A DNA stretch of 64,000 bases from Pyrinomonadaceae bacterium (GTDB lineage: Bacteria > Acidobacteriota > Blastocatellia > Pyrinomonadales > Pyrinomonadaceae), in contig OZ244725.1 in NCBI GenBank assembly GCA_965219305.1, positions 2,003,706 through 2,067,705 of the forward strand, in the 5' to 3' direction. Made by a program: the position numbers and the translations under genes. Under the pieces are notes generated by a model, which was not told the DNA's origin, did no database searches, and worked only from the letters and a program-made list of their open reading frames with translations. This document shows, piece after piece, positions 31,358-47,304 of the stretch (position 1 is the first letter of the stretch; each line of letters begins with the position of its first letter).

Positions 31358-31463
31358 GCCGCGGATGAACGCGGATAAACGCGGATTTAAGAAAATTTTT
31401 CAATTTCAAATGTAATGCAAAAGTAATCTTTCTTAAATCCGCGTTTTCCGCGAAATCCGCGGC
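31358..31463. repeat. modular palindromic element (CGCGGAT family)
   Basis: gccgcggatgaacgcggataaacgcggat … atccgcgttttccgcgaaatccgcggc. GCGGAT words start at 31361, 31371 and 31381. Confidence 0.9.
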
Positions 31464-31473
31464 TAAATATTTC

Positions 31474-32463
31474 TTATCCGTTCACCGATTTCATCATCTC
31501 TTCGGGATAACGCAAACCGGAAACTGCGTCTTTCGGGAAAACTTCTTCGATCTGTTTTAGATCATTTTCGCTCAATTCGACGTTTACCGATTCGGCATTT
31601 TCTTCGAGATATTTGCGGCGTTTCGTTCCCGGAATCGGCACGATGTCGTCGCCCTGCGCCAAAACCCAAGCCAACGCGAGCTGCGAAGCGGTCACGCCTT
31701 TTTCGGCGGCGATTTCTTCAACCTTTTTCACGAGTTCGAGATTTTTATCAAAATTTTCGCCCTGAAAACGCGGACTGTGGCGGCGATAATCGTTTTCGGG
31801 AATGTCTTCAAATTTTGTAAAACTGCCCGACAAAAATCCGCGTCCGAGAGGCGAATACGGCACGAAACCGATTCCGAGTTCGCGGCACGCCGCCAAAACA
31901 TCGTTGTCTTCCGGGTCGCGCGTCCACAAGGAATATTCCGACTGCAAAGCCGTGATCGGATGAACTTTCGACGCGCGGCGCAGAGTTTCCGCCGACGCTT
32001 CGCTCAATCCCAAATAGCGAACTTTTCCTTCCTTCACCAATTCCGACATTGCCAAAACCGTCTCTTCGATCGGCGTATTCGGATCAACGCGATGCTGGTA
32101 ATAAAGATCAATTGTTTCAATTCCCAAACGCTTCAAACTCGCTTCGCACGCCGATTTTACATATTCCGGTTTGCCGTTTATTCCGCGCACATTCGGATTA
32201 TTCCGGTCGCGTTCGATGGCGAATTTCGTCGCAATTACAAACTCGTCGCGCTTGCCCTTGATCGCTTTGCAGACGAGTTCCTCATTGTCGCCGTAACCAT
32301 ACATATCCGCCGTATCGAGAAAATTTACGCCGATCTCCAACGCGCGGTGAATCGTCTTAATTGATTCCTCATCGTTGCGGTCGCCGTAAAAATCCGACAT
32401 TCCCATACAGCCCAAACCGACGACTGAAACTTCCAAATCTTTGCCCAATATTCGTGTTTTCAT
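31474..32463 (-). CDS. aldo/keto reductase
   Basis: 329 aa. Has …LGCMGMS…FLDTADMYG… and …IPGTKR..YLEEN… AKR motifs. Confidence 0.9.
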
Positions 32464-32506
32464 ATTTTTTTAATGCTAATCGTTATAAACGAATGAATTT
32501 ATTTTA

Positions 32507-32649
32507 GCCGCGGATTTCGCGGAAAACGCGGATTAAATTAAAATCAAATCAATTTAAGTATAAAATTTTTCTTAAAATCCGCGTCATCCGCGTCATCCGC
32601 GGCTAAAATATCTTCTCTTTTTCGTGTTCTTTTCGTGTATGTTCGTGGC
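32507..32649. repeat. CGCGGAT-family palindromic element (32507-32603) followed by a solo CACGAA-family arm (32611-32649)
   Basis: The element is gccgcggatttcgcggaaaacgcggat … atccgcgtcatccgcgtcatccgcggc. It is followed by ttcgtgttcttttcgtgtatgttcgtggc. Confidence 0.85.
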
Positions 32650-32655
32650 TAAAAA

Positions 32656-33516
32656 CTAATTCGCCTGCGCCAATTCTTCTTCAGGAAAATCCGCGCCTTC
32701 CGAAGTTTCCGCCCAAGTGTCGAATTCTTCTTTTAAAGCTTCCAGTTTCAAATTCGCATTCTTAAATGCCGCTTTGCCCAAAAGCAGATTTTTCGGCGGA
32801 TTTTCCGCTTCGACGGCTTTGACAATCGCTTTCGCCGCGCGCACCGGATCGCCGGGCTGATTTCCGCTGTAACCGCGAATCGCCGCCTGATTTGCTCCGG
32901 CGGTTTCCGAATAATCGTCAATCGTTTTCGTCGCGTCATTCGCCGAACGCCCCGCCCAATCGGTGCGAAAACCCGACGGCTCGACGATTATCACGTCAAT
33001 TCCCAGAGGCTTTAATTCTTTCTGCAACGCTTCGGAAAAACCGTTGACGGCAAATTTTGTCGCGTTGTAATAACCGACTCCAGGAAATCCGACGAGTCCG
33101 CCGATGGATGAAATGTTGACGATCGCGCCGCTTTTCCGTTCTCGCATTTTCGGCAAAACCGCCCGCGTCATTTCCGCCAAACCCCAAAAATTCGTTTCAA
33201 ACATTGCGCGAACTTCTGTTTCATCAGATTCTTCAATCGCGCCGAAATAACCGAATCCGGCGTTGTTGACCAAAACGTCAATTTTGCCGAAATGCGCTTC
33301 CGCTTTCGCCACCGCATCGGCGACCTGCGCTTTGTCGTTGACATCCAAAGCAATTGCAAGCGCATTTTCCTTGTTGATCTCGACCAAATCCTGAATCTGC
33401 TGCGTATTTCGCGCCGTCACCGTGACTTGATAATCATTTTCCAACAAATATTTTGCCAATTCACGTCCGAATCCTGTCGAACAACCCGTTATAAACCAAA
33501 TTTTTTTATCACTCAT
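32656..33516 (-). CDS. SDR family oxidoreductase
   Basis: 286 aa with TGCSTGFG, NNAG and YNATK motifs. Confidence 0.9.
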   Translation of the reverse strand: MSDKKIWFITGCSTGFGRELAKYLLENDYQVTVTARNTQQIQDLVEINKENALAIALDVNDKAQVADAVAKAEAHFGKIDVLVNNAGFGYFGAIEESDETEVRAMFETNFWGLAEMTRAVLPKMRERKSGAIVNISSIGGLVGFPGVGYYNATKFAVNGFSEALQKELKPLGIDVIIVEPSGFRTDWAGRSANDATKTIDDYSETAGANQAAIRGYSGNQPGDPVRAAKAIVKAVEAENPPKNLLLGKAAFKNANLKLEALKEEFDTWAETSEGADFPEEELAQAN

Positions 33517-33565
33517 ATTGTTTACCTTTTTAACTCAAATTGCCGCTCAAATTTAATTTTATTTT

Positions 33566-33643
33566 GCCCGCGAATAACGCAAATCTTCATTGATAATTTC
33601 TGATTTTATTTTCAATTCGTGTTCTTTCGTGTTATTCGTGGGC
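33566..33643. repeat. modular palindromic element (CGCGAAT / CACGAAT words)
   Basis: gcccgcgaataacgc … gtgttattcgtgggc. The arm differences are G/A transitions. Confidence 0.75.
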
Positions 33644-33669
33644 AAAAAAAATATTTTCTTAACGGCAAA

Positions 33670-34221
33670 TTATTTTCCCCAATCTTTCTTCTTCAAAATA
33701 TAAACCCAACGGTCTTCGACAGCTTCGCCGTAAAATTCCGCTTCTGCATCGGAAAGCCTTTTCGCGCCGAGTTTTTCGATCGCTTTTTGCGAGCGCAGAT
33801 TGATTGACGCGACGTGAAAAATTACCGTGTCAACAAATCGAAAGGCGAAATCGAGCATCAAATTTTTCATTGCCCGATTGTAATTTCCGCCCCAATGATC
33901 GCGCGCTAAAAACGTGTAACCGATTGCCGCAAAACCTTTTTCTGCGTCGTAATCGTAAAACCGACTGCTCCCGATCGGCTCGTTCGTTTTCGCGTCCAAA
34001 ATGATAAATGCTCTTTTCGATTTCAATGCTTCGTCAAAAAACTTCTCGAAAACGTCACGTTTCCAGCGGTCGTTGCTCGGATGTTGTTCCCAGATTAAAG
34101 CATCGGACGCGACCGCGTAAACCCTTTCAAAGTCGTCAGTTTCGAGCGGAATTAATTTTACCAAATCATTTTCAACAGTTTCGATTTGAAAACTTTCCGC
34201 CGTTTTATTTGAATTATTCAT
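33670..34221 (-). CDS. GNAT family N-acetyltransferase
   Basis: About 183 aa from MNNSNK…. The fold pattern is RimJ/RimL-like. Overlaps the upstream gene end by 8 nt. Confidence 0.75.
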   Translation of the reverse strand: MNNSNKTAESFQIETVENDLVKLIPLETDDFERVYAVASDALIWEQHPSNDRWKRDVFEKFFDEALKSKRAFIILDAKTNEPIGSSRFYDYDAEKGFAAIGYTFLARDHWGGNYNRAMKNLMLDFAFRFVDTVIFHVASINLRSQKAIEKLGAKRLSDAEAEFYGEAVEDRWVYILKKKDWGK

Positions 34222-35128
34222 TTTCCAAAAATTTGCGGTAAGAACCATTTTCGATGTCTTCCAAAATCGTCTTGCCCGAAGAAATTTCCCACTTCAAATC
34301 GCGCTTCGCCTTTTCCGCGTCAAGCTGATTATTTACCGAGAGAAATTCAAACATCATCCCGAATTGTTCACGCGCCTTTTCCGACGGAATGCTTTTCGCC
34401 GGAACATTCAAAAGTCTGCTGACCGCTTCGCTGATTTCCTTAATCGAAACCGTTTCTGCCGAAACATTATACAAACCTTTCGCCGTGCCGGTTTCGAGCG
34501 CGAGCAGATACAAATCCGCCGCGTCTTCAACGTGAACCGCCGAAATTTTATTCTCGCCCGAACCCACGTAATTCGCCGATTTTTCCGCCTTTGCCTGTTC
34601 GATGACAAACGGCACAAACGAACTCGCGCCGCGCCCGTAAACGAAAAACGGCAGACGCAAAACTATCGAACGAATTCCTTTTGAAGATAATTGCACGCAA
34701 TCGCGTTCGGCTTCTCCGCGAGCGACGAATGACGAATTTTGATCGAACGGAAAATCTTCGTCCGCGACGGCATTTCGCGTGTTCCCCAAAACCGACGAAC
34801 CGGAAGTTACGATCAAAGGTTTATTCGTCCGCGCCAGAGCTTCGCCGAAAGTTTTTATCACATCACGTTCCAATTTCACCGAATCTGCAAAATTCTGCGG
34901 ATCAAAATTGAACGCCGTATGAATCACTGCGTCCGCATTCTGCGCCGCGCTTTTCAAAACATCAAAATCGTGCAGTTCGCCGCGCACGACCTCGATATTT
35001 TTCGCTTCCAATTTCGCCGCCGATTCATCATTTCGCGCCAGAGCCGAAATTTTGTAACCTTTACTTTTCAATCTTTCGGCGACGACCGAACCGATATATC
35101 CCGTTGCACCCGTTAAAAATATTTTCAT
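34214..35128 (-). CDS. NAD(P)-binding atypical SDR / NmrA-epimerase-like protein
   Basis: 304 aa with N-terminal MKIFLTGATGYIGS. Confidence 0.85.
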   Translation of the reverse strand: MKIFLTGATGYIGSVVAERLKSKGYKISALARNDESAAKLEAKNIEVVRGELHDFDVLKSAAQNADAVIHTAFNFDPQNFADSVKLERDVIKTFGEALARTNKPLIVTSGSSVLGNTRNAVADEDFPFDQNSSFVARGEAERDCVQLSSKGIRSIVLRLPFFVYGRGASSFVPFVIEQAKAEKSANYVGSGENKISAVHVEDAADLYLLALETGTAKGLYNVSAETVSIKEISEAVSRLLNVPAKSIPSEKAREQFGMMFEFLSVNNQLDAEKAKRDLKWEISSGKTILEDIENGSYRKFLENE

Positions 35129-35144
35129 TTACTAACTCTTAAAA

Positions 35145-36218
35145 TCACTTCGCCGCATTTGCTTCTTCCAAAAACGGGTAATCTATATAACCTTTTTCGC
35201 CGCCCTGATAAAAAGTTGATTCGTCCGGCTCATTTAATGCCGCGTCCAACTTGAAACGCTTCGGCAGATCGGGATTTGCGAGAAAAAGTTTCCCGTAAAC
35301 AATCGCGTCCGCGCCTTTTTCTTCCAGTAATTTTTCGCCCGAATCTTTATCAAAACCGACTCCGGCAAAATAAATTCCTTCATAGATCGGACGCAAAACC
35401 GGATGCCAATTTTTGTTCTGATCGAACGTTCCGAGGTGCAGATAAGCCAAGTCGCGTTTGTTTAATCCTTTGACAACATAATCATAAAGTTCCGCCGCAT
35501 CCGATTCGTGAATGTCGTTAAATTCTCCGCCCGGCGAAAGTCGTATTCCCGTTTTTTCGTTGCCGATTTCCGCGATCATCGCGTCCAAAACTTCAAACAA
35601 AAATCTTGCCCGATTTTCCACCGAACCGCCGTATTCATCATCGCGTTTGTTCGTGTTGTCCGACAAAAATTGCTGAACCAGATAACCGTTCGCCCCGTGC
35701 AGTTCAACGCCGTCAAATCCCGCATCAACTGCATTTTTCGCCGCATTTGCAAAATCTTTCACCGTTGATTTTATTTCTTCCGTCGTTATTTCACGCGGTT
35801 CGACAAAATCCTTCATTCCTTCCATCGTAAAATTTTGCCCGTTCGCTTTGACGGCTGACGGCGCGACCGGATTTTGATTGTCCGGCAGAAAATCCGGCAA
35901 CGCGATTCGTCCAGTGTGAAAAATCTGCATAAAGATTTTTCCGCTTTTTTCGTGAACTGCATCAGCAATTTTGCGCCAGCTTTCGATCTGCTCTTCCGTA
36001 TAAATTCCCGGCGTTTTTATATAACCTTTCGCCATCGCCGACACATTTACAGCTTCCGTAATTATCAATCCCGCCGACGCTCTCTGCGCGTAATATTCGA
36101 CCGCATAATCCGGCTGAACGCCGTCTTCATCCGCACGGCTGCGCGTCATCGGCGCGTAAACAATTCTGTTTTCCAACTCTAAATTTCCTATTTTTAACTT
36201 ATCAAATAATTCGTTCAT
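35145..36218 (-). CDS. Old Yellow Enzyme family alkene reductase (NemA/OPR-like)
   Basis: 357 aa with …APMTR.RA…, …QI.H.GR…, …GFDGVE.H.ANGYL..QFL…. Confidence 0.9.
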   Translation of the reverse strand: MNELFDKLKIGNLELENRIVYAPMTRSRADEDGVQPDYAVEYYAQRASAGLIITEAVNVSAMAKGYIKTPGIYTEEQIESWRKIADAVHEKSGKIFMQIFHTGRIALPDFLPDNQNPVAPSAVKANGQNFTMEGMKDFVEPREITTEEIKSTVKDFANAAKNAVDAGFDGVELHGANGYLVQQFLSDNTNKRDDEYGGSVENRARFLFEVLDAMIAEIGNEKTGIRLSPGGEFNDIHESDAAELYDYVVKGLNKRDLAYLHLGTFDQNKNWHPVLRPIYEGIYFAGVGFDKDSGEKLLEEKGADAIVYGKLFLANPDLPKRFKLDAALNEPDESTFYQGGEKGYIDYPFLEEANAAK

Positions 36219-36246
36219 AATTTTTCACTCTTGCCTTTTTCAAATT

Positions 36247-36289
36247 TCTTTCTCTTTTATTCGTATTTATTCGCGTTTATTCGCGCACA
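36247..36289. repeat. solo arm of the palindromic element family (CGCGAAT-type words)
   Basis: ttattcgtatttattcgcgtttattcgcgcac. No partner arm is present. It abuts the stop of the gene at 36299. Confidence 0.6.
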
Positions 36290-36298
36290 AAACATCTT

Positions 36299-36934
36299 CT
36301 AATAACTCGAATACAAAACGCCATCAATTTCCTCAAATTTCAGATCGCGGTTGTAAATCGCCGAACCCGGAGCTTGCGTTTTGCCGCCGTCGCTCAAATT
36401 TCCTGTATCGTAAGCCGCAAAACCGATCTCTTCGATCAACGCCGCAACTTTTTTCTTCGCGTCTGCATCATCGCCGCAGAGAAAAATCACGCGCCGTTCG
36501 TCAATCGGCAAATCCTTGTTTCCCTGCGTTTTCAAATGTTCTGACCAAATCGTATTAAACGCTTTAACGACGATTGCGCCTTTTAAATGCTCGGCAAGCA
36601 GTTCGCTCGAAGTAATTTTATTTGCATCAATATCTCCAAATTCGCCGTCGCGGTCGGGATAATAATTATTGGAATCAATCACGATTTTCCCTTTAAAAGC
36701 ATCTGCCGGAAGTTCTTTATATTTGCCGAACGGAATCGAAACAAAAACGATCTCGCCAAAATCCGCCGCTTCTTCAACCGTCACGGCTTTCGCATTTCCG
36801 CCGATTTCCGCAACTTGTTCCGCCAAAGTCTCCGGTCCGCGCGAATTAGCAATCGCAATTTCGTGTCCCTTTTCCGCAAACAATTTCGCCGCATTGCCGC
36901 CGATATTTCCCGCTCCGATAATTCCTATTTTCAT
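36299..36934 (-). CDS. NADPH-dependent F420-reductase-like NAD(P)-binding oxidoreductase
   Basis: 211 aa with MKIGIIGAGNIGGN Rossmann N-terminus (F420_oxidored-type). Confidence 0.7.
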   Translation of the reverse strand: MKIGIIGAGNIGGNAAKLFAEKGHEIAIANSRGPETLAEQVAEIGGNAKAVTVEEAADFGEIVFVSIPFGKYKELPADAFKGKIVIDSNNYYPDRDGEFGDIDANKITSSELLAEHLKGAIVVKAFNTIWSEHLKTQGNKDLPIDERRVIFLCGDDADAKKKVAALIEEIGFAAYDTGNLSDGGKTQAPGSAIYNRDLKFEEIDGVLYSSY

Positions 36935-36949
36935 AATTTTTTATTTTTA

Positions 36950-37134
36950 GCCACGAACAAACACGAAATGGACACGAACAAAAGAAATTTAGCCACAGAT
37001 GGACATAGATAAAAACCGGATAAAACCAAATTAGATTTATCTTCCTCATCTCCTAAAAATCTGTGTATATCTGTGTTCATCCGTGGTTAAATATTCTTCT
37101 CTTTTTTCGTGTTCTTTTCGTGTCTGTTCGTGGC
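36950..37134. repeat. nested palindromic element: outer CACGAA-family arms enclosing an inner CACAGAT-family element (36992-37087)
   Basis: Outer arms: gccacgaacaaacacgaaatggacacgaac … ttcgtgttcttttcgtgtctgttcgtggc. Inner arms: gccacagatggacatagataaaaaccggat … atctgtgtatatctgtgttcatccgtggt. Confidence 0.9.
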
Positions 37135-37919
37135 TAATCTCCTAATTTTTCACCCAAAACAACCTTTCGCATCTTCCGCAATTGATGCAGCCAACGGTCG
37201 TAATTCTCAGCTTTGTTGACAATATATTCACCGACTTCAACGTGCGGCAGAATCAAGAATTTTTCTTCATCCAGAGTTCTCACAACCGTCTCCGCACATT
37301 CTTCAACCGTGATCGAATCGGGAATCAAAAACGAATTGTTTCCATACTTAGCATCTTCGATCAAACGCGTCCGAACGCCTTGCGGACACAGACACGAAAC
37401 GTAAATTTTGTCGCCGAATTCAATCGCAAAACTCTCCGCCATCGCCACCGCCGCGTGTTTCGTCACCGAATACGGAGCCGACAAAGGATGCGTTAAAAGT
37501 CCCGCCGCCGAAGCCGTAATCATAAATCCGCCGCCGCCGTTTTCGATCATCTGCGGAAAAATCGCCCGCGCCAGATAAACGTGCGACAAAACATTGACTT
37601 TGTAAACCAAATCCCAAATCTTGTCCGAAACTTCCAGCGACCCTTCCGCACCGCCGATGCCCGCATTCGACGCGACAAAATCAATCCGCCCGCATTCGTC
37701 TAAAATTCCTTTGACGACCGTTTTACAATTTTCTTCGTCCGCGACGTTTAATTTAACTGCTTTCCCATTCACCGATTCCGCAACTTTTTCCGCATTTTCA
37801 AATTCCAGATCGGCAACAAAAATCTTCGCCGCGCCTTCCGCGTGAAACCGCTCGCACAAAGCCTTCCCAATCCCGTTCGCACTACCCGTGACGAGAATTA
37901 TTTTGTCTTTTAGATTCAT
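37134..37919 (-). CDS. SDR family oxidoreductase
   Basis: The start is set at MNLKDKIILVTGSANGIG. The track N-terminal extension [11 protein letters not shown] is translation of the repeat arm. The stop TAG lies at the repeat terminus. Confidence 0.85.
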   Translation of the reverse strand: MNLKDKIILVTGSANGIGKALCERFHAEGAAKIFVADLEFENAEKVAESVNGKAVKLNVADEENCKTVVKGILDECGRIDFVASNAGIGGAEGSLEVSDKIWDLVYKVNVLSHVYLARAIFPQMIENGGGGFMITASAAGLLTHPLSAPYSVTKHAAVAMAESFAIEFGDKIYVSCLCPQGVRTRLIEDAKYGNNSFLIPDSITVEECAETVVRTLDEEKFLILPHVEVGEYIVNKAENYDRWLHQLRKMRKVVLGEKLGD

Positions 37920-37927
37920 AATTTTTT

Positions 37928-38119
37928 GCCACGAACAAACACGAAATTTCACGAAACAGAAAAATTAGCCACAGATTCACTCAGATGAACACGAATGAAA
38001 ACCGGATGTAATTATTTCAAAAATCTGTCCCTTATCTTTCTTAATCTGTGTCTATCTGTGTAAATCTGTGGCTAAACTTCTTCGTTCTTTTCCGTGTATT
38101 TTTTGTGTTCGTTCGTGGC
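37928..38119. repeat. nested palindromic element (outer CACGAA arms; inner CACAGAT element 37968-38072)
   Basis: gccacgaacaaacacgaaatttcacgaa … [gccacagattcactcagatgaacacgaat … atctgtgtctatctgtgtaaatctgtggc] … gtgttcgttcgtggc. Confidence 0.9.
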
Positions 38120-39078
38120 TAATTTCCCACCGTCAACACGACTTTGCCCGTCGTTTTTCTGCCTTCAATAGCTTCGTGCGCTTCTTTCACATTTTCTAAA
38201 GGAAACTCCGTCACTTGAATTTTCAAACGTCCCGCGCCTAAATGTTCGAGTAATTCTTTCGTAAATTTGATACGATTTTCGACCGATTCGTTCATTAGCC
38301 AATAACCGCGAATCGTGTGATTTTTGTGCATCAAACTCAAGACCGAAACTTTGAAATCTTCACCCGAAGCCGAGCCGTAAACCCACATCGTGCCGTGTTT
38401 TGCCAGCACTTTCAGATTTTTCGCCACGATGTCGCCGCCGACCATTTCGATCAGCCAGTCAACGCCTTTGCCGTCGGTCGCTTTTAATACTTCGTCCGTC
38501 CAATCGTCTTCCGAATAATTGATCGCAAAATCCGCGCCGAGATCGGCGACCATCTGCAATTTCGCCTCGCTCGAAGCCGTGCCGATGACCTTCAAACCTT
38601 TCTGTTTCGCAAGTTGCACGAGCAAAGTCCCGACGCCGCCCGCCGCTGCGTGAATCAAAATCGTTTGCCCTGATTTCGTCTGGTTCAAAAGCCCGAGCGC
38701 GGTCAAGCCTTGCACAAGCAGCGCATTTGATTCGCCAAAACCGAGTTCGTCGGGAATCGGCATCGTCAGCGCGGCTTTCGCCGTCGCGTATTCGGCATAA
38801 CCGCCGCTCGAAGTCGTCGCCAAAACGCGCTGTCCGACTTTCAAATTCGAGACATTTTCGCCCAAAATTTCAATCGTCCCCGCCGCTTCATAACCGAGCG
38901 TCAGCGGCAATTCCGGCTGCGTCAAATAATTGCCCTCACGCATCATCGTGTCGGCATAATTAATTCCCGCCGCCGCGACTTTGATCAAAACCTCGTCCGC
39001 CTTCGGAGCCGGTTTTTCGATTTCCTCAAGCGACAATTTATCCGTTCCGCCAAGTTCATTTAATCTGATTGCTTTCAT
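38119..39078 (-). CDS. MDR-family NADPH:quinone oxidoreductase / zinc-type alcohol dehydrogenase-like
   Basis: 319 aa with …GINYADTMMREG.Y… and AAAGGVG nucleotide-binding motif. Confidence 0.9.
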   Translation of the reverse strand: MKAIRLNELGGTDKLSLEEIEKPAPKADEVLIKVAAAGINYADTMMREGNYLTQPELPLTLGYEAAGTIEILGENVSNLKVGQRVLATTSSGGYAEYATAKAALTMPIPDELGFGESNALLVQGLTALGLLNQTKSGQTILIHAAAGGVGTLLVQLAKQKGLKVIGTASSEAKLQMVADLGADFAINYSEDDWTDEVLKATDGKGVDWLIEMVGGDIVAKNLKVLAKHGTMWVYGSASGEDFKVSVLSLMHKNHTIRGYWLMNESVENRIKFTKELLEHLGAGRLKIQVTEFPLENVKEAHEAIEGRKTTGKVVLTVGN

Positions 39079-39817: not shown

Positions 39818-40351
39818 TTAAGCATTTTCCAACGCTTCGAGCAAATTTTCGTAATCGAACGAACCGTTAAAACGAACGCCGTTGATGAAAAAACTCGGCG
39901 TTCCGTTCACGCCGCTTTCGACTCCGCTCATAAAATCCGCTTGAACTTTTTCCTCGAATTTGCCGCTTTCTAAATCTTCGGCGAATTTGTCCGCGTCAAG
40001 CCCGATTTTTTCCGCGTAAGATTTCAAACTTTCGTCGTCGAGCGCGTTTTGATTTTCAAAAAGCGCGTCGTGCATTTCCCAAAACTTTCCGTCCTGCGCG
40101 GCAATTTCCGACGCTTCCGCCGCGTGTTCGGCGTGCGGATGCGATTGCTGTAACGGAAATTTGCGAAACACGAAACGCAAATCATTGCCCATTTCCTTTT
40201 GAATTTTCTTGACGATTTCATACGCTCTGCCGCAATGCGGACATTCGTAGTCGCCGTATTCGACGAGCGTAACTCGTGCGTTTTCAGAACCTTCCGCGTG
40301 ATCGTCCGTGCCGACGGGAACTGTTAATTCAGGATTTTCATTATTTGCCAT
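39818..40351 (-). CDS. DsbA-family thioredoxin-fold protein
   Basis: 177 aa with the CPHC active site and …GTPSFFING…. Confidence 0.85.
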   Translation of the reverse strand: MANNENPELTVPVGTDDHAEGSENARVTLVEYGDYECPHCGRAYEIVKKIQKEMGNDLRFVFRKFPLQQSHPHAEHAAEASEIAAQDGKFWEMHDALFENQNALDDESLKSYAEKIGLDADKFAEDLESGKFEEKVQADFMSGVESGVNGTPSFFINGVRFNGSFDYENLLEALENA

Positions 40352-40859
40352 TTTCGTTTTCTCCGTTTTCTTCGCTCTCGATTTCCTTGAGCGTTTTCAA
40401 AATCTGATCCGCGCCCGGATTTACCCCAATCGGCGAAACGTAGCTGTAACGAATCACGCCGTCTTTATCAATGACAAACAGCGCGCGTTCGCTAAATCCG
40501 TCTTCGTCGCGGTAAACGCCGTATTTTTTCGCCACTTCGCCTTTCGGCTCGAAATCCGAAAGCAGCATCATTTTGTAGCCGCGATCTTTGCGAAACGCCT
40601 CGTGCGAAAATTCGCTGTCAACCGAAACACCGAAAAGCTCCGCATTTTGCTTTTCAAACACCGGCAAAAGCTCGTTGTAAAGCGCAAGCTGATCGCCGCA
40701 AACCGCGCTCCAATCCGCCGGATAAAACGCCAAAACGACATTTTTCCCGCGCATATTTTCCAAAGTAAACGTCGGCTCTTCATCGCCCGCCGCTTCAACC
40801 GCGCGACACGGCAAAGTAAAATTCGGTGCTTTCTCGCCCGCTTTTAATAATTCACTCAT
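40341..40859 (-). CDS. peroxiredoxin (AhpC/TSA family)
   Basis: 172 aa with FYPADWSAVC peroxidatic Cys context. Confidence 0.85.
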   Translation of the reverse strand: MSELLKAGEKAPNFTLPCRAVEAAGDEEPTFTLENMRGKNVVLAFYPADWSAVCGDQLALYNELLPVFEKQNAELFGVSVDSEFSHEAFRKDRGYKMMLLSDFEPKGEVAKKYGVYRDEDGFSERALFVIDKDGVIRYSYVSPIGVNPGADQILKTLKEIESEENGENENGK

Positions 40860-40892
40860 AATTTAATTTCCCCTTGTTAATTGTAATTTTTT

Positions 40893-41087
40893 GCCACGAA
40901 TAAACACGAAAAATTTTAAGAAGTTTTAGCCACAGATTTTCACAGATTCATACGGATAAAATACAGATAAATTCAAATAAATAACTTTAAAATCTGTCTT
41001 ATCCTGCTTCAAAAATCTGTGTTTATCTGTGTTCATCTGTGGCTAATTTTTCTTTTTTTTTCGTGCTTTTTCGTGTCTGTTCGTGGC
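40893..41087. repeat. nested palindromic element (outer CACGAA arms; inner CACAGAT element 40929-41043)
   Basis: gccacgaataaacacgaaaa … [gccacagattttcacagattcatacggat … atctgtgtttatctgtgttcatctgtggc] … ttcgtgctttttcgtgtctgttcgtggc. Confidence 0.9.
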
Positions 41088-42112
41088 TAACTTCCTTTCG
41101 CTGTCGCAACATTTTCGTTAAAAAGTTCTGCGACGATTTCATAAGAACGCAGACGTTTTTCCTGATCGAAAACCATCGCGTTAACCATAATTTCGTCCGC
41201 TTTTGATTCTTCCAGAAACGCTTCCAATTTCCGTTTGACCGTTTCCTTGCTTCCGATGATCGAACCGCCCGTGCGCGAATTTACCAGAGTTTTTTCCTGC
41301 GCGTTCCAGATCGTGTTCATATCTTCGACCGGCGGCGGGATTTTGCCCGGTCTGCCGCGCACCAGATTTAGAAAAGACTGATACTGCGAAGTCGCTAAAA
41401 ATTCGGCTTCTTCGTCGGTTTCCGCCGCGATCACATTCAAACAAACCATCGCGTGCGGCTTTTGCAAATCGTCCGAAGGCTGAAAAGTTTTCCGGTAAAG
41501 TTCCAGAGACGGCAAAGTATGTTCGGGTGAAAAATGCGCCGCGAATGCGAACGGCAAACCCAAAACTCCGGCAAGATGCGCCGAAAAACCGCTCGAACTC
41601 AAAAGCCAGATCGGAACATTCAAACCCGCGCCCGGAACCGCCTGAACCTTTTGATTTGCCACCGTTTCGCGGAAAAAGAATCGCAATTCTTCAAGCTGTT
41701 CGGGAAATTCTTCGCCGTCATTGTTCAAACTCCGACGCAACGCCAATGTCGCCGGACGATCAGTTCCGGGAGCGCGTCCCAAACCGAGATCAATTCGATT
41801 CGGATAAAGCGATTCGAGCGTCCCGAACTGCTCGGCGATCACAATCGGCGCGTGATTCGACAACATAATTCCGCCCGAACCGACGCGGATCGTCGAAGTA
41901 TTTCCCGCGACAAACCCGATCACCACCGAAGTCGCCGCGCTCGCAATGCCGACCATATTGTGATGCTCGGCAAGCCAAAATCTCTGATAACCCAAACTTT
42001 CAGCCCGCTGCGCCAAACTCAAAGTCCGCTTAAACGCATCGCTCACATTTTCGCCTTCAAAAACGGGCGATAAATCTAAAACTGAAAATGGAATTTTTGT
42101 AATATTGCTCAT
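41087..42112 (-). CDS. LLM-class (luciferase-like) flavin-dependent oxidoreductase
   Basis: The start is set at [16 protein letters not shown]…. …[12 protein letters not shown]… is typical of the YhbW-like group. The stop TAG is at the repeat terminus. Confidence 0.85.
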
Positions 42113-42130
42113 AATTTCCCCTTGTTTTTT

Positions 42131-42472
42131 GCCACGAACAAACACGAAAGTTCACGAAAGTACAAGAAAGACTTTAAATAAAAAAGTTTTTATTCTGTTG
42201 CTTCAATTTCTGTTTCAAGAACATAAATATCGCCACCTTTATCTGAATCCAATTCAGCCAAATAAGTTATTGGTTCAAGTGAAATCAATGAAATTATACT
42301 TGCTTGATTTCCTGAGTAATCACCTTTAACAATTTGAATGCAATCGTTGTATCCGAATTTTACACCCTCGAGTTGCTCAAGTTCATACCAAAGTTTATTT
42401 GCTTCATCTAAATCCATAAATAGTAAAAAATTTCCTTATTCTTTTTGTGTCCTTTTCGTGTCTGTTCGTGGC
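42131..42472. repeat. CACGAA-family arm pair enclosing a 75-aa ORF
   Basis: The left arm is gccacgaacaaacacgaaagttcacgaaag (42131-). The right arm is gtgtccttttcgtgtctgttcgtggc (-42472). Confidence 0.8.
42190..42417 (-). CDS. hypothetical acidic 75-aa protein located inside a palindromic element
   Basis: ORF only. No motif recognised. AT-rich. Confidence 0.45.
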   Translation of the reverse strand: MDLDEANKLWYELEQLEGVKFGYNDCIQIVKGDYSGNQASIISLISLEPITYLAELDSDKGGDIYVLETEIEATE

Positions 42473-42480
42473 TAAATTCC

Positions 42481-43569
42481 TTACGCCGATTTTGCCTTTC
42501 GCAGATCAATTGCGCGCCCGTATTGTTTCGGCACATATCCCAAATCTTTACCCAATTCCTTCGCCGCCGTGAACGGAAAATACGGTTCGCGCAAAAATTC
42601 CCGCGCCATCAAAATCGCGTCGGCTTCGCCGTTTTGCAAAATTTCTTCGGCTTGTTTTGCGTCCGTAATCATTCCGACCGCGCCCGTCGGAATTTCAGCT
42701 TGTTTGCGAATTTCCGCCGCGAAAGAAACCTGATAATTCGGTGCGACGGGAATCTTCACGTCCGGCACATTTCCGCCCGTCGAAACGTCAATCAGGTCAA
42801 TTCCGATCTTTTTGAGTTCCTTGCAAAACTCGATTGACTGCGCTAAATCCCAACCCTTTTCTGTCCAATCGGTCGCCGAAATGCGAACGAAAACCGGAAG
42901 ATTTTCCGGCACGGTTTCGCGCACTTTTTTTGCAACTTCCAAAGGAAAACGCATCCGATTTTCCAGACTTCCGCCGTATTCGTCGTCGCGTTTGTTGGAA
43001 AGCGGCGATAAAAATTCGTGAAATAAATAACCGTGCGCGGCGTGAATTTCAATCACTTCAAAACCTGCATTTAACGCAAATTTCGTCGCCGCGACAAAAT
43101 CGTTTGTCGATTTTTCAATGTCGTCTTTCGACATTTCGCGCGGCAACGGATAATCGTCCGCAAACTTTTCCGCCGTCGGCGCGACCGTTTCCCAACCGCC
43201 GTTTTCGATCTCGACTTCTTTCCCACCGTTCCAAGGTTCTGCTGTTGAAGCTTTTCGTCCGGCGTGCGCGAGCTGAATTCCCGCAATTGCGCCGTATTCC
43301 TTGATAAATTTCGTGATTCTCTTATAACTTTCGGCGTGCGCGTCCGACCAAATTCCAGCGTCTGACGGAGAAATTCTGCCTTTGGGCGAAACGGCGGTCG
43401 CTTCCTGAATAATCAAACCCGCGCCGCCGACCGCGCGGCTTCCAAGATGAACGAGATGCCAATCCGTCGGCATTCCTTCCTCGCTCGAATATTGACACAT
43501 CGGCGAAACCCAAATTCGGTTGCGAAAATCGATTTCTCTTAATTTATAACTTTCAAATAATTTGCTCAT
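42481..43569 (-). CDS. Old Yellow Enzyme family NADPH dehydrogenase (YqjM/NamA-like)
   Basis: 362 aa with …SPMCQY…, …QL.HAGRK…, …FEVIEIHAAHGYL..EFLSP…. Confidence 0.9.
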   Translation of the reverse strand: MSKLFESYKLREIDFRNRIWVSPMCQYSSEEGMPTDWHLVHLGSRAVGGAGLIIQEATAVSPKGRISPSDAGIWSDAHAESYKRITKFIKEYGAIAGIQLAHAGRKASTAEPWNGGKEVEIENGGWETVAPTAEKFADDYPLPREMSKDDIEKSTNDFVAATKFALNAGFEVIEIHAAHGYLFHEFLSPLSNKRDDEYGGSLENRMRFPLEVAKKVRETVPENLPVFVRISATDWTEKGWDLAQSIEFCKELKKIGIDLIDVSTGGNVPDVKIPVAPNYQVSFAAEIRKQAEIPTGAVGMITDAKQAEEILQNGEADAILMAREFLREPYFPFTAAKELGKDLGYVPKQYGRAIDLRKAKSA

Positions 43570-43586
43570 AAATTTCCCTTGATCTT

Positions 43587-43823
43587 CTACTGATTTTTTA
43601 TTTCGCCATCATCCAAAATGGCTTCGACCGGACAACACATCATTGCTTCTCTGCACTTTTTTTCTTCTTCTGGTGTTTCAGGTTGCTTCGCAAAATATAC
43701 GCCAAAATCTTCCGTGTCAGGTTTTATATTGTCAGGCGCGTAATATATACAAGCCTCACTGCAAGTGCAGACATCATAATCAATGTAGTATTTGCCTTTT
43801 ACATTCAAAGGATGAATTTTCAT
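43587..43823 (-). CDS. small ferredoxin
   Basis: 78 aa with CTCSEAC…AP and a C-terminal CCPVEAI cluster-binding pattern. Confidence 0.65.
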   Translation of the reverse strand: MKIHPLNVKGKYYIDYDVCTCSEACIYYAPDNIKPDTEDFGVYFAKQPETPEEEKKCREAMMCCPVEAILDDGEIKNQ

Positions 43824-43827
43824 TTTT

Positions 43828-43855
43828 TTCGCGTCCTTTCGCGTTTTTCGCGGGC
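43828..43855. repeat. solo arm of the palindromic element family
   Basis: ttcgcgtcctttcgcgtttttcgcgggc. It lies next to the stop of the gene at 43864. Confidence 0.55.
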
Positions 43856-43863
43856 AAAAATTC

Positions 43864-44757
43864 TTACGTCATTTGCTTCCAATCTTCGCCGCCGACTTCG
43901 TGCCAACGTTGATGAATTGCGGCAAATTCTTCGCCCGACAAATTTCCTTCCGAAATATATTTCGCGTTTTCGCTCCAGCGTCCCGGTTTTGTCGTGCCGA
44001 CGATCATCGTGTCAATTCCAGGAATTGTCATCGTAAAACGCAACGCCGTCGCAATTGATTCTTCCAGACTTTTGCCCAAAAATTCGTATTTCAATTTCTG
44101 AATTCTGTCCCAATATTCGTGATGATAAGAATCCGACGGTTTCGCGTCGTGCCGCCAAACGGCATTTGCAATCGGACGTTTGGCAATTACGCCGACATTT
44201 TTCTCTTGCGCTGTTTTTATCACACTGTCAATCGCCGCTTGATCGGCAATCGAAACGGAAGTTTGCAAACTGTCGAAAACGTCCATTTCGAGCGCAGTTT
44301 TCGCGTCGTCGTTGTCACCTGAATAACCGATGTAACGCGTGTAGCCTTTTTCCTGCGCTCTCTGCAACGCTTCGATTGCTTCGCCGCGATTTAAGATTTC
44401 GCTGTCGCAACTGTGCAATTGCGCGATGTCGAGATAGTCGGTTTTCAAATTTCGCAAGCTGTTTTCAATTGTTTCTAAAATTCCTTTTTTCGACCAGTCG
44501 TAGCGCGTAAAACCGTCGAGCGCGCCGCATTTCGTCAGCAGATAAAATGAATTGCGCCGTTTGCCGACCGTTTCGCCGATCAATTTTTCGCTTTCCCAAT
44601 ACGCCGCCGCCGTGTCAATGACATTCAAACTGGCATCCAAAGCCGCGTTCAAAAGCTCGCCGACACTTTCGCGCGTCACCTCGCGCCCGATCTCCGCGCC
44701 GCCGAAGCCGAGAACGGAAAATTCCATATCAGTTTTGCCAAATTTTCTTTTTTCCAT
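43864..44757 (-). CDS. aldo/keto reductase
   Basis: 297 aa with the AKR N-terminus MEKRKFGKTDMEFSVLGFGG… and …DTAAAY…. Confidence 0.85.
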   Translation of the reverse strand: MEKRKFGKTDMEFSVLGFGGAEIGREVTRESVGELLNAALDASLNVIDTAAAYWESEKLIGETVGKRRNSFYLLTKCGALDGFTRYDWSKKGILETIENSLRNLKTDYLDIAQLHSCDSEILNRGEAIEALQRAQEKGYTRYIGYSGDNDDAKTALEMDVFDSLQTSVSIADQAAIDSVIKTAQEKNVGVIAKRPIANAVWRHDAKPSDSYHHEYWDRIQKLKYEFLGKSLEESIATALRFTMTIPGIDTMIVGTTKPGRWSENAKYISEGNLSGEEFAAIHQRWHEVGGEDWKQMT

Positions 44758-44766
44758 AAAATTTTT

Positions 44767-45154
44767 AACCGCAGATTTTCGCAGATGGACGCAGAGAATT
44801 TATTTAGATTTTTCTTTGCTCAATTCCTTGATGTCGTTTTCAAATTCTGCAAAATCTGCTTCGTGTTTCATGATTGCTTCTTCAATTGTCGAACAAGCTT
44901 CTGCTGACATTTCTTCAAAATTTTCGCTCGACAAACTTTCGATAAAATACATTTCTAAATTTTCTCGATAAACTTTGTCTGAATCCTCATAAATATAATC
45001 TTTTAACTGCACAAAAAACTTTCCGTCAGGCAAAATTTCAAAACACCGATAACGTGCCACAGTTCTTTCATCAACACTTTTCCAAATATTTATTTCTTTG
45101 AAAAATTTATCTGATTTCATAAAAATCTGCGTTTATCCGCGTTTATCTGCGGTT
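44767..45154. repeat. CGCAGAT-family arm pair enclosing a 106-aa ORF
   Basis: The left arm is aaccgcagattttcgcagatggacgcagag. The right arm is atctgcgtttatccgcgtttatctgcggtt. Confidence 0.8.
44800..45120 (-). CDS. hypothetical 106-aa protein located inside a palindromic element
   Basis: ORF only. The C-terminus is acidic. Confidence 0.45.
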   Translation of the reverse strand: MKSDKFFKEINIWKSVDERTVARYRCFEILPDGKFFVQLKDYIYEDSDKVYRENLEMYFIESLSSENFEEMSAEACSTIEEAIMKHEADFAEFENDIKELSKEKSK

Positions 45155-45167
45155 AATTTCCCACTTT

Positions 45168-45647
45168 TTACAAATCGAAAATAAAACAAGTCGTCGTCCC
45201 GTGTGCATAAATTTTTCCGTTTTCGTCAATCAACTTGCCTTCCGCCGAGCCGATTTGTTTTCCGACATTTACGATCTTGCCGACGGCTCTTAAAGTTCCG
45301 GTTTTCTCGAAGATCGGGCGCACGAAATTTACTTTTAGTTCGACGCTTGTCGCGGCTTTTCCCGCTTTTAAGGTCGAATGAATCGCGCACGCCATTGCCG
45401 AATCGAGCAGAGTTGCGATAAATCCGCCGTGAATCGTTCCCATCGGATTGTAAAATTTCGCGTGCGGTCTGCCTTCAAAAATGACGCTCCCGTTTTCGAC
45501 TTCCGCCAGACCGAAATCAAAAGATTCGCCGATCGGCGGCGCGGGAAATTCTCCCGTGACCATTTTGCGGAAAATCTCGATTGCGTCTTCAGTTTTCCAA
45601 ACTTCAGCCGGAATAAGTCCGAATTTTATTTTTTCTGTTGCTGTCAT
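45168..45647 (-). CDS. PaaI-family hotdog-fold thioesterase
   Basis: 159 aa with …GTIHGGFIATLLDSAM…. Confidence 0.85.
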   Translation of the reverse strand: MTATEKIKFGLIPAEVWKTEDAIEIFRKMVTGEFPAPPIGESFDFGLAEVENGSVIFEGRPHAKFYNPMGTIHGGFIATLLDSAMACAIHSTLKAGKAATSVELKVNFVRPIFEKTGTLRAVGKIVNVGKQIGSAEGKLIDENGKIYAHGTTTCFIFDL

Positions 45648-45861
45648 TAATCGTAATCAAAAAAACTCGTTAAAAAAACAGAAACCGCCGCGATTGTTTT
45701 CGGCGATTTCAAAATACGGACAAACTAATACATTCTTTCCATCTGTTTCTACTTTACTACAATCGAAACTCATTTTCTAAAATGCGGAAAATCGGGTTTG
45801 TGCGGAAATTTAGAAACTTTCCCTGTATTTTGCAAGGTTTTGTGTGGCAAAATAAAATTGT

Positions 45862-46554
45862 ATGTCGTCAATCGTTTTTCCAAATCCGCTCACGCACAAA
45901 TTCCAAGATTGGGTTTTATTCGGCGATTTTTATTATGACACGCGCGACATTATCAGTTTCGGTGGTGATTTATCGGTGAATAATTTGCAAAACGCTTATC
46001 GAATAGGAATTTTTCCGTGGCATATTGACGGTTTGCCGATGCCTTGGTTTTGCCCGGAAACTCGTGCGATTTTGGAGTTTACAGATTTGCATCTTCCAAA
46101 AAGTTTGAAAAAAATTTGGCGAAAAAACGATTTTACCTTTACGATTGATAGAGATTTTCGCGCCGTTATCGAAAGCTGCGCCGCCGTTACCCGAAAATTT
46201 GAAAGCGGTACTTGGATTACAGACGAATTTATCGAAAGCTATGACGATTTTCACAAAGCGGGCGGCGCACACAGCGTTGAAGTTTGGGATGTTTCCGGCG
46301 CACTCGTCGGCGGACTTTACGGCGTTGACGCGGGCGGGATTTTTTGCGGTGAGAGTATGTTTCATCACGTTTCAAATGCGTCGAAACTCGCTTTGCTTTT
46401 TCTGGTCGAACATCTAAAATCGCGCGGCGCGGCGTGGATTGACATTCAGGTGATGACACCGCATTTTGAAGTTCTCGGCGCGAAGGAAATCACGCGCAAA
46501 AGTTTTCTGCAAAAATTGGAAACCACGCAAAAGCAAAATCTGAAACTTTTCTAG
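45862..46554 (+). CDS. aat: leucyl/phenylalanyl-tRNA--protein transferase
   Basis: 230 aa with …AYR.GIFPW…, …GTWIT.EF…, …AHSVEVW…LVGGLYGV..GG.F.GESMFH…. The exact start is uncertain. Confidence 0.85.
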   Translation: MSSIVFPNPLTHKFQDWVLFGDFYYDTRDIISFGGDLSVNNLQNAYRIGIFPWHIDGLPMPWFCPETRAILEFTDLHLPKSLKKIWRKNDFTFTIDRDFRAVIESCAAVTRKFESGTWITDEFIESYDDFHKAGGAHSVEVWDVSGALVGGLYGVDAGGIFCGESMFHHVSNASKLALLFLVEHLKSRGAAWIDIQVMTPHFEVLGAKEITRKSFLQKLETTQKQNLKLF

Positions 46555-46560
46555 CAAAAT

Positions 46561-47025
46561 ATGGACACACAAAAAGAAATCCGCAAACATATTATCGAAC
46601 TTCTCGACGGCAAATCGGCGCATATTGATTTGCAGAAAGTTCTCAAAAAATTTCCGGTCGAACTGCGAAACGAAAAGCCGGAAAATTCGCCTCATACGCC
46701 TTGGGAACTGCTCGAACATTTAAGAATCGCGCAGTCGGACATTTTGGAATTTTCGCGTGATAAAAATCACGTTTCGCCGAAATTTCCCGACGGTTATTGG
46801 AATAAATCGCAGGCGAGCGTTGAAGATTGGCAAAATTCGTGCGGGCAGATTCTCAAAGATTTGCAGGAAATGCGCGATCTCGTCGCCGATGAAAAAACGG
46901 ATGTTCTCGCCGAAATTCCGCACGGCGACGGGCAGACGATTTTCCGCGAAGCACTTCTTATCGCCGATCACAACGCTTATCATCTCGGCGAAATTGTCTT
47001 GTTGCAGAGAATTTTGGAGAAATAA
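46561..47025 (+). CDS. DinB family protein
   Basis: 154 aa with the His triad pattern (…HLRIAQ.D…, …HNAYHLGE…). Confidence 0.8.
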   Translation: MDTQKEIRKHIIELLDGKSAHIDLQKVLKKFPVELRNEKPENSPHTPWELLEHLRIAQSDILEFSRDKNHVSPKFPDGYWNKSQASVEDWQNSCGQILKDLQEMRDLVADEKTDVLAEIPHGDGQTIFREALLIADHNAYHLGEIVLLQRILEK

Positions 47026-47030
47026 AAATT

Positions 47031-47234
47031 ATGCCGAATCGTGAAAGAAAAAATATCCGCGCCGGATTAGAAGTGGCGATCGTTCAAAAACAAGATCAGC
47101 GAACGGGAAAACAAACTGTCGGAATCGTCAAAGATTTGCTGACAAATTCAAATTTTCACCCGCACGGAATAAAAGTTCGTCTGACGGACGGGAAAGTCGG
47201 AAGAGTTCAGGAAATTTTAAGTCAAGAAAATTAA
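47031..47234 (+). CDS. YwbE family protein
   Basis: 67 aa with …QDQRTGK.T.GIVKD.LTNS..HPHGIKVRL.DG.VGRVQEI. Confidence 0.75.
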   Translation: MPNRERKNIRAGLEVAIVQKQDQRTGKQTVGIVKDLLTNSNFHPHGIKVRLTDGKVGRVQEILSQEN

Positions 47235-47304
47235 CCGCAGATTTTCGCAGATAGACGCAGATTTTTTATCCTTTTATCTGCGTTTATCTGCGAAATCTGC
47301 GGTT
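47233..47304. repeat. compact palindromic element (CGCAGAT family) between convergent genes
   Basis: aaccgcagattttcgcagatagacgcagat … atctgcgtttatctgcgaaatctgcggtt. The ywbE stop TAA overlaps its first bases. Confidence 0.9.

Follow-up and report, generated by a model that had tools for sequence, protein, structure and literature searches.

Palindromic intergenic elements with arms of tandem 10-nucleotide units in a Pyrinomonadaceae genome: a putative foldback mini-cassette family of prokaryotes and viral contigs

A 64,000-nucleotide stretch of a Pyrinomonadaceae bacterium genome (assembly GCA_965219305.1, contig OZ244725.1, positions 2,003,706 to 2,067,705), here called the window, contains about 16 units of a palindromic intergenic element, most of which lie at 31-47 kb between oxidoreductase genes of the same strand. 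The inverted arms of these elements are built of short phased words and enclose a loop that may hold a nested element or a small open reading frame (ORF). We consider it somewhat more probable than not that the window elements are copies of a foldback (palindromic) family of mobile mini-cassettes, mostly cargo-less and resembling miniature inverted-repeat transposable elements (MITEs). The palindrome family spans many bacterial phyla, some archaea and viral contigs, and its members appear to undergo movement or exchange between gene junctions; the evidence that suggests such mobility or exchange is purely comparative, drawn from the sequences of related loci.

A scan for the word C[GA]C[GA][GA]A[TCA] chained at 9-11 nt recovered 22 chains of at least three words in the window, against a mean of 0.04 and a maximum of 1 in 100 dinucleotide-preserving shuffles, and the structured repeat family with phased words proposed in an earlier sequence-only reading of this DNA is thus genuine. 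The single word is not enriched (471 occurrences against 507 expected), which means that the excess resides in the phasing. The spacing, which that reading had put at 10-11 bp, was measured as 9-11 nt, with a peak at 10 nt (32 cases) followed by 9 nt (18) and 11 nt (5). An inverted-repeat finder gives the same window elements independently of the word scan, and all coordinates and sequences cited earlier were recovered; the hairpin units themselves stood, while their nesting, the enclosed ORFs and the lone arms had been overlooked. The folding energies predicted for the window elements as hairpins range from -40 to -59 kcal/mol (z-scores from -7 to -13). The tally comprises five simple palindromes, three nested pairs, two ORF-enclosing elements, two lone arms and two degenerate copies; in all three nested pairs the outer arms are of the CACGAA type and the inner element is of the CACAGAT type. 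Element length is 60-350 nt. The genes at 30.7-45.6 kb are all on the minus strand and include those for aldo-keto reductases (AKRs), short-chain dehydrogenases/reductases (SDRs), old yellow enzyme (OYE) flavoenzymes, a luciferase-like monooxygenase, AhpC and DsbA; the junctions of this oxidoreductase array are filled by the elements, with the upstream stop codon often inside the terminal T-TAG-CC. The features are given below in window coordinates, with a strand for the ORFs; an arm is termed A-type where it reads CRCRGAT, and ADH denotes alcohol dehydrogenase.

9868-9986: palindromic element with CGCGGAT-type arms (words mixed in the left arm) and an 83-nt loop, between PhzF-like and L-PSP-like genes
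26894-26970: degenerate copy (GCCCGCGAAACACGCATAAAG ... TTTTCGTCTTTTTCGTTAA), weak and recognized from sequence reading alone
31354-31467: palindromic element of six CGCGGAT words with AGCC/GGCT termini, filling the AKR-to-transglutaminase junction
32500-32610: palindromic element of the CGCGGAT type
32620-32652: lone arm of the CACGAA type, on the minus strand an A-arm immediately after the SDR stop codon; probably an outer arm left over from a nested pair
33562-33648: palindromic element with GCCC/GGGC termini and CGCGAAT/CACGAA words
36259-36293: degenerate arm with ATTCGCG twice
36947-37137: outer element with CACGAAC arms at the SDR-to-F420-oxidoreductase junction, the SDR stop TAG lying within the terminal TTAGCC
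36989-37090: inner element with CACAGAT/CACGGAT arms, nested in the loop of 36947-37137
37925-38122: outer element with CACGAA arms at the ADH-to-SDR junction, orthologous to positions 7675-7881 of relative L121
37965-38075: inner element with CACAGAT arms, nested within 37925-38122
40890-41090: outer element with CACGAA arms at the luciferase-like-to-AhpC junction, orthologous to L121 5829-6070, with the stop TAG in the terminal TTAGCC
40926-41047: inner element with CACAGAT arms, nested within 40890-41090
42128-42475: ORF-enclosing element with CACGAA arms (42128-42159 and 42443-42475) around a 75-aa ORF
42190-42417, minus strand: the 75-aa cargo ORF, without a Pfam or NCBIfam match
43587-43823, minus strand: 78-aa ORF following the lone arm 43827-43858 on the gene strand, with a 4Fe-4S single-cluster ferredoxin domain
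43827-43858: lone arm of CGCGAAA words with a GGGC terminus, on the gene strand directly upstream of the small ferredoxin-like ORF
44765-45156: ORF-enclosing element with CGCAGAT arms (44765-44796 and 45125-45156) around a 106-aa ORF
44800-45120, minus strand: the 106-aa cargo ORF, of no known family, with 17 homologues
47231-47306: compact palindromic element of six CGCAGAT words with AACC/GGTT termini and a 13-nt loop, between DinB_2 and FeoB

The anatomy of the arm was derived from an alignment of 168 arms taken from other genomes. An arm begins with the terminus A/G-CC, usually with an A before it, followed by about three tandem 10-nt units AAC-R-C-R-GAT-R. The terminus had been described as (TTA)GCC, and GCC does occur, but so does ACC; three words per arm is indeed the mode, but the range is 2 to 7. 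The spacers do not vary freely as had been supposed: the base preceding each word is A in 85-89% of the arms, and the two bases preceding the word are biased too (G/A, then A). As A precedes most words, the true repeat unit is the 10-mer. The two arms of an element are about 91% Watson-Crick complementary with mismatches that are mainly transitions, and on the sense strand there is no asymmetry between G.U and A.C among these mismatches (35 vs 40, p=0.64). The six words of one element tend to be of the same type: concordance is about 0.9 for word position 2 and about 0.74 for position 4. For words from different elements, about 0.5 is estimated from word-type frequencies. The reported co-variation of arms therefore holds for word type across the whole element, but at the variable G/A positions pairing partners agree no better than non-partners (0.91 vs 0.88 and 0.75 vs 0.72), so that it lends only weak support to the selection for a hairpin that had been deduced from it. 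Only in the spacers is complementarity partner-specific, at 0.70 between partners against 0.55 between non-partners and 0.46 across elements; the spacers pair less well than the words. No direct repeats indicative of target-site duplication were found around 54 elements, whose outer bases instead prolong the palindrome by 2-5 bp, although a 2-nt TA duplication is still possible as TA is self-complementary. A terminator scan revealed no enrichment of intrinsic terminators or promoters at the elements, with A-runs coming after the stem and T-runs before it. Since arms are also found singly and as tandem direct copies, the basic module looks like the arm rather than the hairpin. The helical phasing is compatible with recognition by a protein on one face of the DNA, as had been suggested, but a simple tandem 10-nt repeat accounts for it equally well.

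Several other identities for the word and the ends were tried and rejected. A period of 10 (3n+1) in units with GATGA or GATAA might have supplied stops and starts in three frames, but T[GA]A follows only about 30-50% of the words. ACACGGAUGA agrees with the CsrA/RsmA motif (A/UCANGGANGU/A); in 51-57% of the words, however, position 5 has A instead of G, and the GGA is lost. TTATCC is common to the elements and the DnaA box, but the essential CACA of the latter is GTG here, the word having CAC/GTG where the DnaA box has TGT/ACA; the archaeal occurrences argue against this identity too. Duplication of a TTAA or TA target in the style of piggyBac or IS630 was discarded as the flanks are palindromic and varied (GGAAC/GTTCC) and are not direct repeats.

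Comparisons with related genomes provide the evidence for turnover at the junctions. Homologues of the window AKR are named as Pyrinomonadaceae (Acidobacteriota), and syntenic relatives with 82-89% AKR identity carry the same array with differing gene content and order. The nested elements at the luciferase-redoxin and ADH-SDR junctions are common to the window and relative L121 (82-85% identity); between the two genomes the arms are 0.73-1.00 identical, the loops and inter-arm spacers 0.23-0.55, which is near saturation, and the third codon positions of the flanking genes 0.51-0.84. Empty sites in relatives were looked for and found: the SDR-F420 junction, which holds an element in the window, is empty in L121 with overlapping genes, and the AKR flanks are empty in relatives L122 and L123. 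Other junctions are filled differently. For example, between the AKR and transglutaminase genes the window has six CGCGGAT words with AGCC ends, and L124 has six CACAGAT words with AACC ends. At the 4HBT-AKR junction the 106-aa ORF with CGCAGAT arms is found in both the window and L205, and a different small membrane ORF with CACAGAG words in L206. The junction after the MFS gene, a gene that the window array lacks, holds a 68-aa ORF with arms in L205 and, in L206, a 105-aa homologue of the 106-aa ORF with CACAGAT arms, which precedes the luciferase gene. Three homologues of the 106-aa ORF come with a source name, and these are labelled Acidobacteriota or Pyrinomonadaceae.

The array as a whole (30695-45647) differs in every relative examined (L121, L122, L124, L205, L206, L328), with genes such as those for MFS, DUF6228, tautomerase, GNAT and OYE copies present in some and absent from others, and thus resembles a cassette array without an integrase. 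The relatives also hold palindromes made from other tandem words, at 388-520 and 1912-1992 in L205 and at 2083-2130 and 3320-3441 in L206; these words include GCGAAAG/ACGAAAG, the heptamer GTAGAGA/GTAACGA six times, ACAGGAT three times and CACAGAG. This lineage may have a general tendency towards such tandem-word palindromes.

The family is not confined to this locus. The pattern RCCRCRGATNNNCRCRGAWNNNCRCRGAT, for which we estimate one or two matches by chance, matched at least 120 loci in 185,579 species-representative genomes, and those listed span more than ten bacterial phyla and archaeal metagenome-assembled genomes (MAGs). Among the taxa listed are Acidobacteriota, Planctomycetota, Verrucomicrobiota, Cyanobacteria, Alpha-, Beta- and Gammaproteobacteria, Chloroflexi, Bacteroidota, Nitrospirae, Leptospiraceae, Calditrichia, Methanoperedens and Methanosarcinales, and isolates of Scytonema, Microcoleus and Pedobacter also gave matches. 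In 27 of the matches listed both arms satisfy the strict pattern; their layout is the same and their loops measure about 10-200 nt. In the other genomes the elements are mostly single per 8 kb and intergenic, commonly beginning 0-30 nt past a stop codon; the genes on their two sides are tandem in 91 cases, convergent in 47 and divergent in 14. An arm profile hidden Markov model (HMM) built from the genome-scan arms alone recovers 13 window arms with E-values of 6e-10 to 0.06, on the strength of which the *GAT-type elements of the window belong to the wider family, with the CACGAA-type outer arms as a diverged subfamily; further word variants are CGCTGAT, CGCCGAT, ACAGGAT and CACAGAG. In the viral contigs of IMG/VR the same pattern again matches at least 120 loci, some contigs bearing 7-10 arms and one arm-bearing contig a phage head-tail connector gene; here direct tandem arrays of arms with a period of 47 nt are seen as well. 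Where a lone arm stands between co-oriented genes, it is of the A-type on the sense strand in 38 cases against 13 in the cellular set and in 53 against 26 in the viral set.

Lone arms, those at 32620-32652 and 43827-43858 of the window among them, often directly follow a stop codon and precede a small ORF, and in viral contigs (L261 10171-10245 and 13450-13571; L231 4555-4838) direct tandem arms without an inverted partner stand immediately 5' of ORF starts. A Wenzhouxiangellaceae chromosome (L119 5430-6570) bears a 214-nt element with CGCAGAT arms three times in tandem, the copies being about 310-620 bp apart. ORF finders translate the arms into recurrent peptides (MNTDEHG..., MDADKG..., ...SVFICVHLW..., ...IRVHPWF...), and such arm-derived peptides probably give rise to spurious hypothetical proteins and falsely extended N termini in environmental genomes; a model of the element would clean gene calls in many of them.

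The only recurrent cargo is a gene for a protein of about 125 aa of the GxxExxY family (TIGR04256/PF13366, PD-(D/E)xK); no transposase-sized ORF lies between arms in about 240 loci. Two GxxExxY genes were present within the 120 genome loci listed and both are bracketed by arms. In a sample of 80 metagenome loci with this gene (GC content 0.40 to 0.66), in which arms were called by the arm profile, the gene lies between an upstream A-oriented arm and a downstream B-oriented arm in 51, has a single arm in 17 and none in 12. By the strict word scan the arm density is 2.60 per kb up to 150 nt from the GxxExxY gene and 0.044 per kb beyond 400 nt, a difference of about 59-fold. The ORF often begins within the last unit or a few nucleotides past it. 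The upstream neighbour is co-oriented in 47 cases against 8 and the downstream neighbour is often convergent, which is how a promoterless passenger located at the end of a transcription unit would be expected to behave. An arm-bracketed GxxExxY gene and an element-rich oxidoreductase array coexist in the complete 4.05-Mb genome of one relative. The predicted GxxExxY structure (pLDDT 87) has a generic PD-(D/E)xK nuclease fold with weak matches to Cas4, lambda exonuclease, restriction-like proteins, splicing endonucleases and Hjc; no relative turned up when solved structures were searched by sequence. The phylogeny of the protein is only weakly linked to word type (0.58 vs 0.55 identity) and is uninformative in this regard. 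The family comprises 25,208 clusters at 50% identity, and has been described as being of unknown function with multiple transfers among Bacteria, Archaea and viruses (PMC3424549). Some of its members, 250-290 aa in length, hold two tandem GxxExxY domains.

Based on these observations we envisage the following mechanism. The cis-acting unit would be the arm, with its terminus (T)A/G-A/G-CC and about three tandem 10-nt units AAC-R-C-R-GAT-R, and two inverted arms would flank a loop that is empty (10-200 nt), holds a nested element or carries a small promoterless gene. As the elements typically start at or just past the stop codon of a co-oriented upstream gene, such cargo would be expressed by read-through transcription. 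A trans-acting protein binding the phased units would recognize the arms on DNA. It is possible, though we propose it with reserve, that this protein is the GxxExxY PD-(D/E)xK nuclease encoded by the commonest cargo, which is the leading enzyme candidate because it is the only recurrent one and its spread over bacteria, archaea and viruses mirrors that of the arms. Movement could then take the form of homing, in which empty hairpins would be cleaved and repaired from a filled copy, or of an excision and insertion reaction that leaves no target duplication. The uniformity of word type across an element might stem from gene conversion between words paired in slipped or alternative registers, or from recent duplication of units. 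Stems of 30 bp would form in operon transcripts too, as in rRNA intervening sequences. The dense arms probably promote gene shuffling within the oxidoreductase array.

Several observations weigh against the interpretation of the elements as mobile mini-cassettes. No target-site duplication is visible. The comparisons of filled and empty junctions rest on genomes only about 85% identical in protein, and exact insertion junctions are not reconstructable from them. The constancy of sequence across phyla is partly an ascertainment effect, because the search used exactly this pattern. A purely symmetric DNA element would not predict the two to three-fold A-type strand bias of lone arms, and the tandem direct arms of viral contigs are unfit for a simple terminal-inverted-repeat model. 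The GxxExxY gene was found neither in the window nor in 1.1 Mb of viral loci, and as the cargo includes ORFs other than GxxExxY, the nuclease itself could be a passenger.

A rival view, which we regard as rather unlikely, is that the 30-bp stem acts primarily as RNA-level punctuation in the polycistronic transcript, as an RNase III site, a 3' stabilizer or a translational insulator, with mobility being secondary. The very stable stems, with the folding energies and z-scores given above, the position of the elements at or just past stop codons, their location between tandem or convergent and rarely divergent genes (91, 47 and 14), and the conservation of arms relative to loops all speak for it, and an RNA role of stems may also explain the sense-strand orientation bias of lone arms. 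It has a precedent in the Coxiella intervening sequence, in which a 28-bp terminal stem surrounds a small ORF and is cut by RNase III (PMC4990558). However, the sense strand has no excess of G.U over A.C, partner-specific covariation at the G/A positions is absent, the elements are not intrinsic terminators, with A-runs after and T-runs before the stem and no enrichment in the scan, and arms also occur single and in direct tandem; moreover, a structural role leaves the recurrence of the same 10-mer across phyla unexplained. The symmetric mismatches and the direct-tandem arms thus argue against an RNA role as the primary constraint, and such a role is plausible as a consequence. We hold it improbable that a host DNA-binding protein, either nucleoid-associated or a regulator of redox functions or detoxification, uses the phased words as operators arrayed along a single helical face. 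The 9-11 nt spacing near one helical turn and the density of elements in one functionally coherent oxidoreductase array, in the window and in its relatives, would suit such a protein, but the same arms stand beside unrelated genes in more than ten phyla, archaeal MAGs and viral contigs, are depleted in divergent, promoter-containing regions and flank selfish-looking small ORFs; junction occupancy differs between close relatives, and by eye the word fits neither the DnaA box nor the CsrA motif.

A marginally less probable reading still takes the window as a cluster of attC sites lacking an integrase (CALIN), with palindromes as atypical integron-like sites after each cassette. The same-strand gene array in which a palindrome after each gene fills the intergenic space, the presence of typical cassette functions (GNAT, DinB, ABM, thioesterase), the variable gene content among relatives and the AAC...GTT ends of many copies outside the window are all reminiscent of integrons. 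Yet there is no integrase within the 64-kb window, whose termini are mostly TTAGCC/GGCTAA (AGCC/GGCT) and not RYYYAAC/GTTRRRY core sites, and in the AAC...GTT copies elsewhere A, T or C comes next and no RRRY pattern is seen. An arrangement of three boxes 10 nt apart also differs from the R-box, unpaired spacer and L-box of attC; the small ORFs lie between inverted half-sites and not before one complete site, copies are nested and arms placed in direct tandem, and in other genomes the elements are mostly dispersed singletons. A gene with a Y1_Tnp domain inside the array (39246-39689, minus strand), for a transposase akin to those of IS200 and to REP-associated tyrosine transposases (RAYTs), could suggest that the elements are repetitive extragenic palindromes (REPs) or REPINs moved by its product, and the elements resemble REPs in being extragenic and palindromic, in their location at gene 3' ends and in the lack of target duplications. 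We give this very little credence, as the Y1 gene is flanked by a different hairpin, CCACTAGCTKMAGCTAGTGG, which occurs twice in the window, both times beside this gene (39160-39179 and 39768-39787), its product scores 34 bits with the REP_Tyr_transpos model against a cut-off of 80, a single arm is not a hairpin but three direct 10-nt units without internal complementarity, and there is no GTAG or CGTC tag, the termini (T)A/G-A/G-CC pairing with the other arm. The RAYT-like gene is therefore not an obvious partner of the three-word arms. Equally remote, in our estimation, is an origin as mutational by-products without dedicated machinery, in which slippage triplicates a 10-mer and template switching inverts it, so that palindromes are born de novo and decay. 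The uniform word type across whole elements, the palindromes of unrelated tandem words in relatives, the variation of word number from 2 to 7 and the tandem arm arrays of 47-nt period in viral contigs could be products of such processes, but palindromes born independently would not arrive at one and the same 10-mer and terminus in many phyla, nor would they produce the 59-fold association with one gene family or the conservation of arms beside decaying loops.

The Y1 unit at 39160-39787 is itself REPtron- or TIRtron-like; it lies between the DsbA and ADH genes and is absent from that junction in L121, L122 and L328.

Among known systems the closest analogues of the mini-cassettes are the intervening sequences of 23S rRNA in Leptospira and Coxiella, which carry an ORF for the S23p four-helix bundle. 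Both have a small, apparently selfish ORF or nothing enclosed by a long stem, which is formed by terminal inverted repeats of about 28-30 bp. The sporadic distribution of the intervening sequences suggests horizontal transfer, and they have long been suspected to be mobile by a mechanism that is unknown (PMC4990558). The elements described here differ in residing at junctions of protein-coding operons and not in helices 25 or 45 of 23S rRNA, the window containing no rRNA, in having GxxExxY or other small ORFs as cargo in place of S23p, and in arms of tandem 10-mers. In the eukaryotic Foldback (FB) transposons the inverted arms are arrays of short tandem subrepeats, from about 10 bp upwards, and the loop is variable or absent and sometimes contains genes. 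These traits are shared with the present family; unlike our elements, the FB transposons have arms of hundreds of base pairs to kilobases, belong to another domain of life and generate target-site duplications, of which none were seen here. MITEs such as Correia/NEMIS, Nezha and Chunjie are likewise small, without transposase, bounded by terminal inverted repeats, intergenic, nestable and variably present, but here no target-site duplication was seen, the ends are phased tandem units, the same sequence is found across phyla, and no parent insertion sequence with the same ends occurs in about 240 loci.

As do REP/REPIN-RAYT systems and bacterial interspersed mosaic elements (BIMEs), the present family consists of extragenic palindromes at gene 3' ends without target duplications, and in those systems too larger inverted dimers are possible. 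The REP unit is a 20-40-nt hairpin with an unpaired GTAG (or CGTC) tag and flanks its RAYT gene (PMC3733652); the arm of the present family is in contrast an untagged direct repeat, and the local Y1 gene has other flanking hairpins. With integron attC sites the elements share imperfect palindromes after promoterless same-strand genes, boxes with poorly paired spacers, a variable cassette-like content and AAC...GTT ends, but they differ in the lack of an integrase, the unmatched R'/R'' core in the window, the ORFs inside the palindrome and the dispersed singletons elsewhere. No described REP, BIME or MITE family of this architecture was found in Rfam or the literature. No Rfam family reached the gathering score, permissive scans giving sub-threshold matches to miRNA precursors, which are generic hairpins. 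Full-text literature searches with arm sequences as 14- to 17-mers returned nothing relevant, subscription journals being outside their scope so that an earlier description is possible. Such arms are not described in the literature on GxxExxY, PDDEXK_3, intervening sequences, REP surveys and foldback elements, nor is the three-word architecture described in a REP survey that covers these phyla (PMC3733652). A BLAST search of a synthetic consensus element against PLSDB plasmids and INPHARED phages gave no match, though the low-complexity filter may have masked the query. The family is thus seemingly undescribed, and is a candidate for a promoterless gene cassette of a kind other than integron cassettes, MITEs and REPs.

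This raises the possibility, which we advance as a speculation, of a class of elements across prokaryotes and viral contigs in which arrays of 10-bp units are recognized by the GxxExxY nuclease that the element often carries, with the rRNA intervening sequences as its rRNA-resident relatives. The chance that the family represents a new mobility mechanism is likewise below even, yet substantial. GxxExxY/PDDEXK_3 is a very large and often transferred orphan family, and its systematic bracketing by a conserved DNA module offers a testable idea of its function. Were the elements indeed mobile and recognized by GxxExxY, this would provide a function for more than 25,000 protein clusters and an explanation of the long-standing puzzle of rRNA intervening sequences. 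As the elements saturate an array whose gene content differs between close relatives, they may drive gene shuffling at the operon level.

Two further inverted repeats in the window are of other kinds. An unrelated 26-nt inverted repeat at 28102-28169 (AATCCGATAAACCTCAAATGCAGACT / AGTCTGAATTTAAGGTTTATCGGATT, 92% complementary) lies between two ORFs without a Pfam match. A GC-rich hairpin, AAAAAGGTTCGGAGTTCCGGTTT / AAACCGGAACTCCGAACATTTTT, at 13991-14048 may be a terminator or belong to another repeat family, and a similar one, GTTCGGAGTTCCAAC...GTTGGAACTCCGAAC, is found in relative L124 at about 12000-12120.

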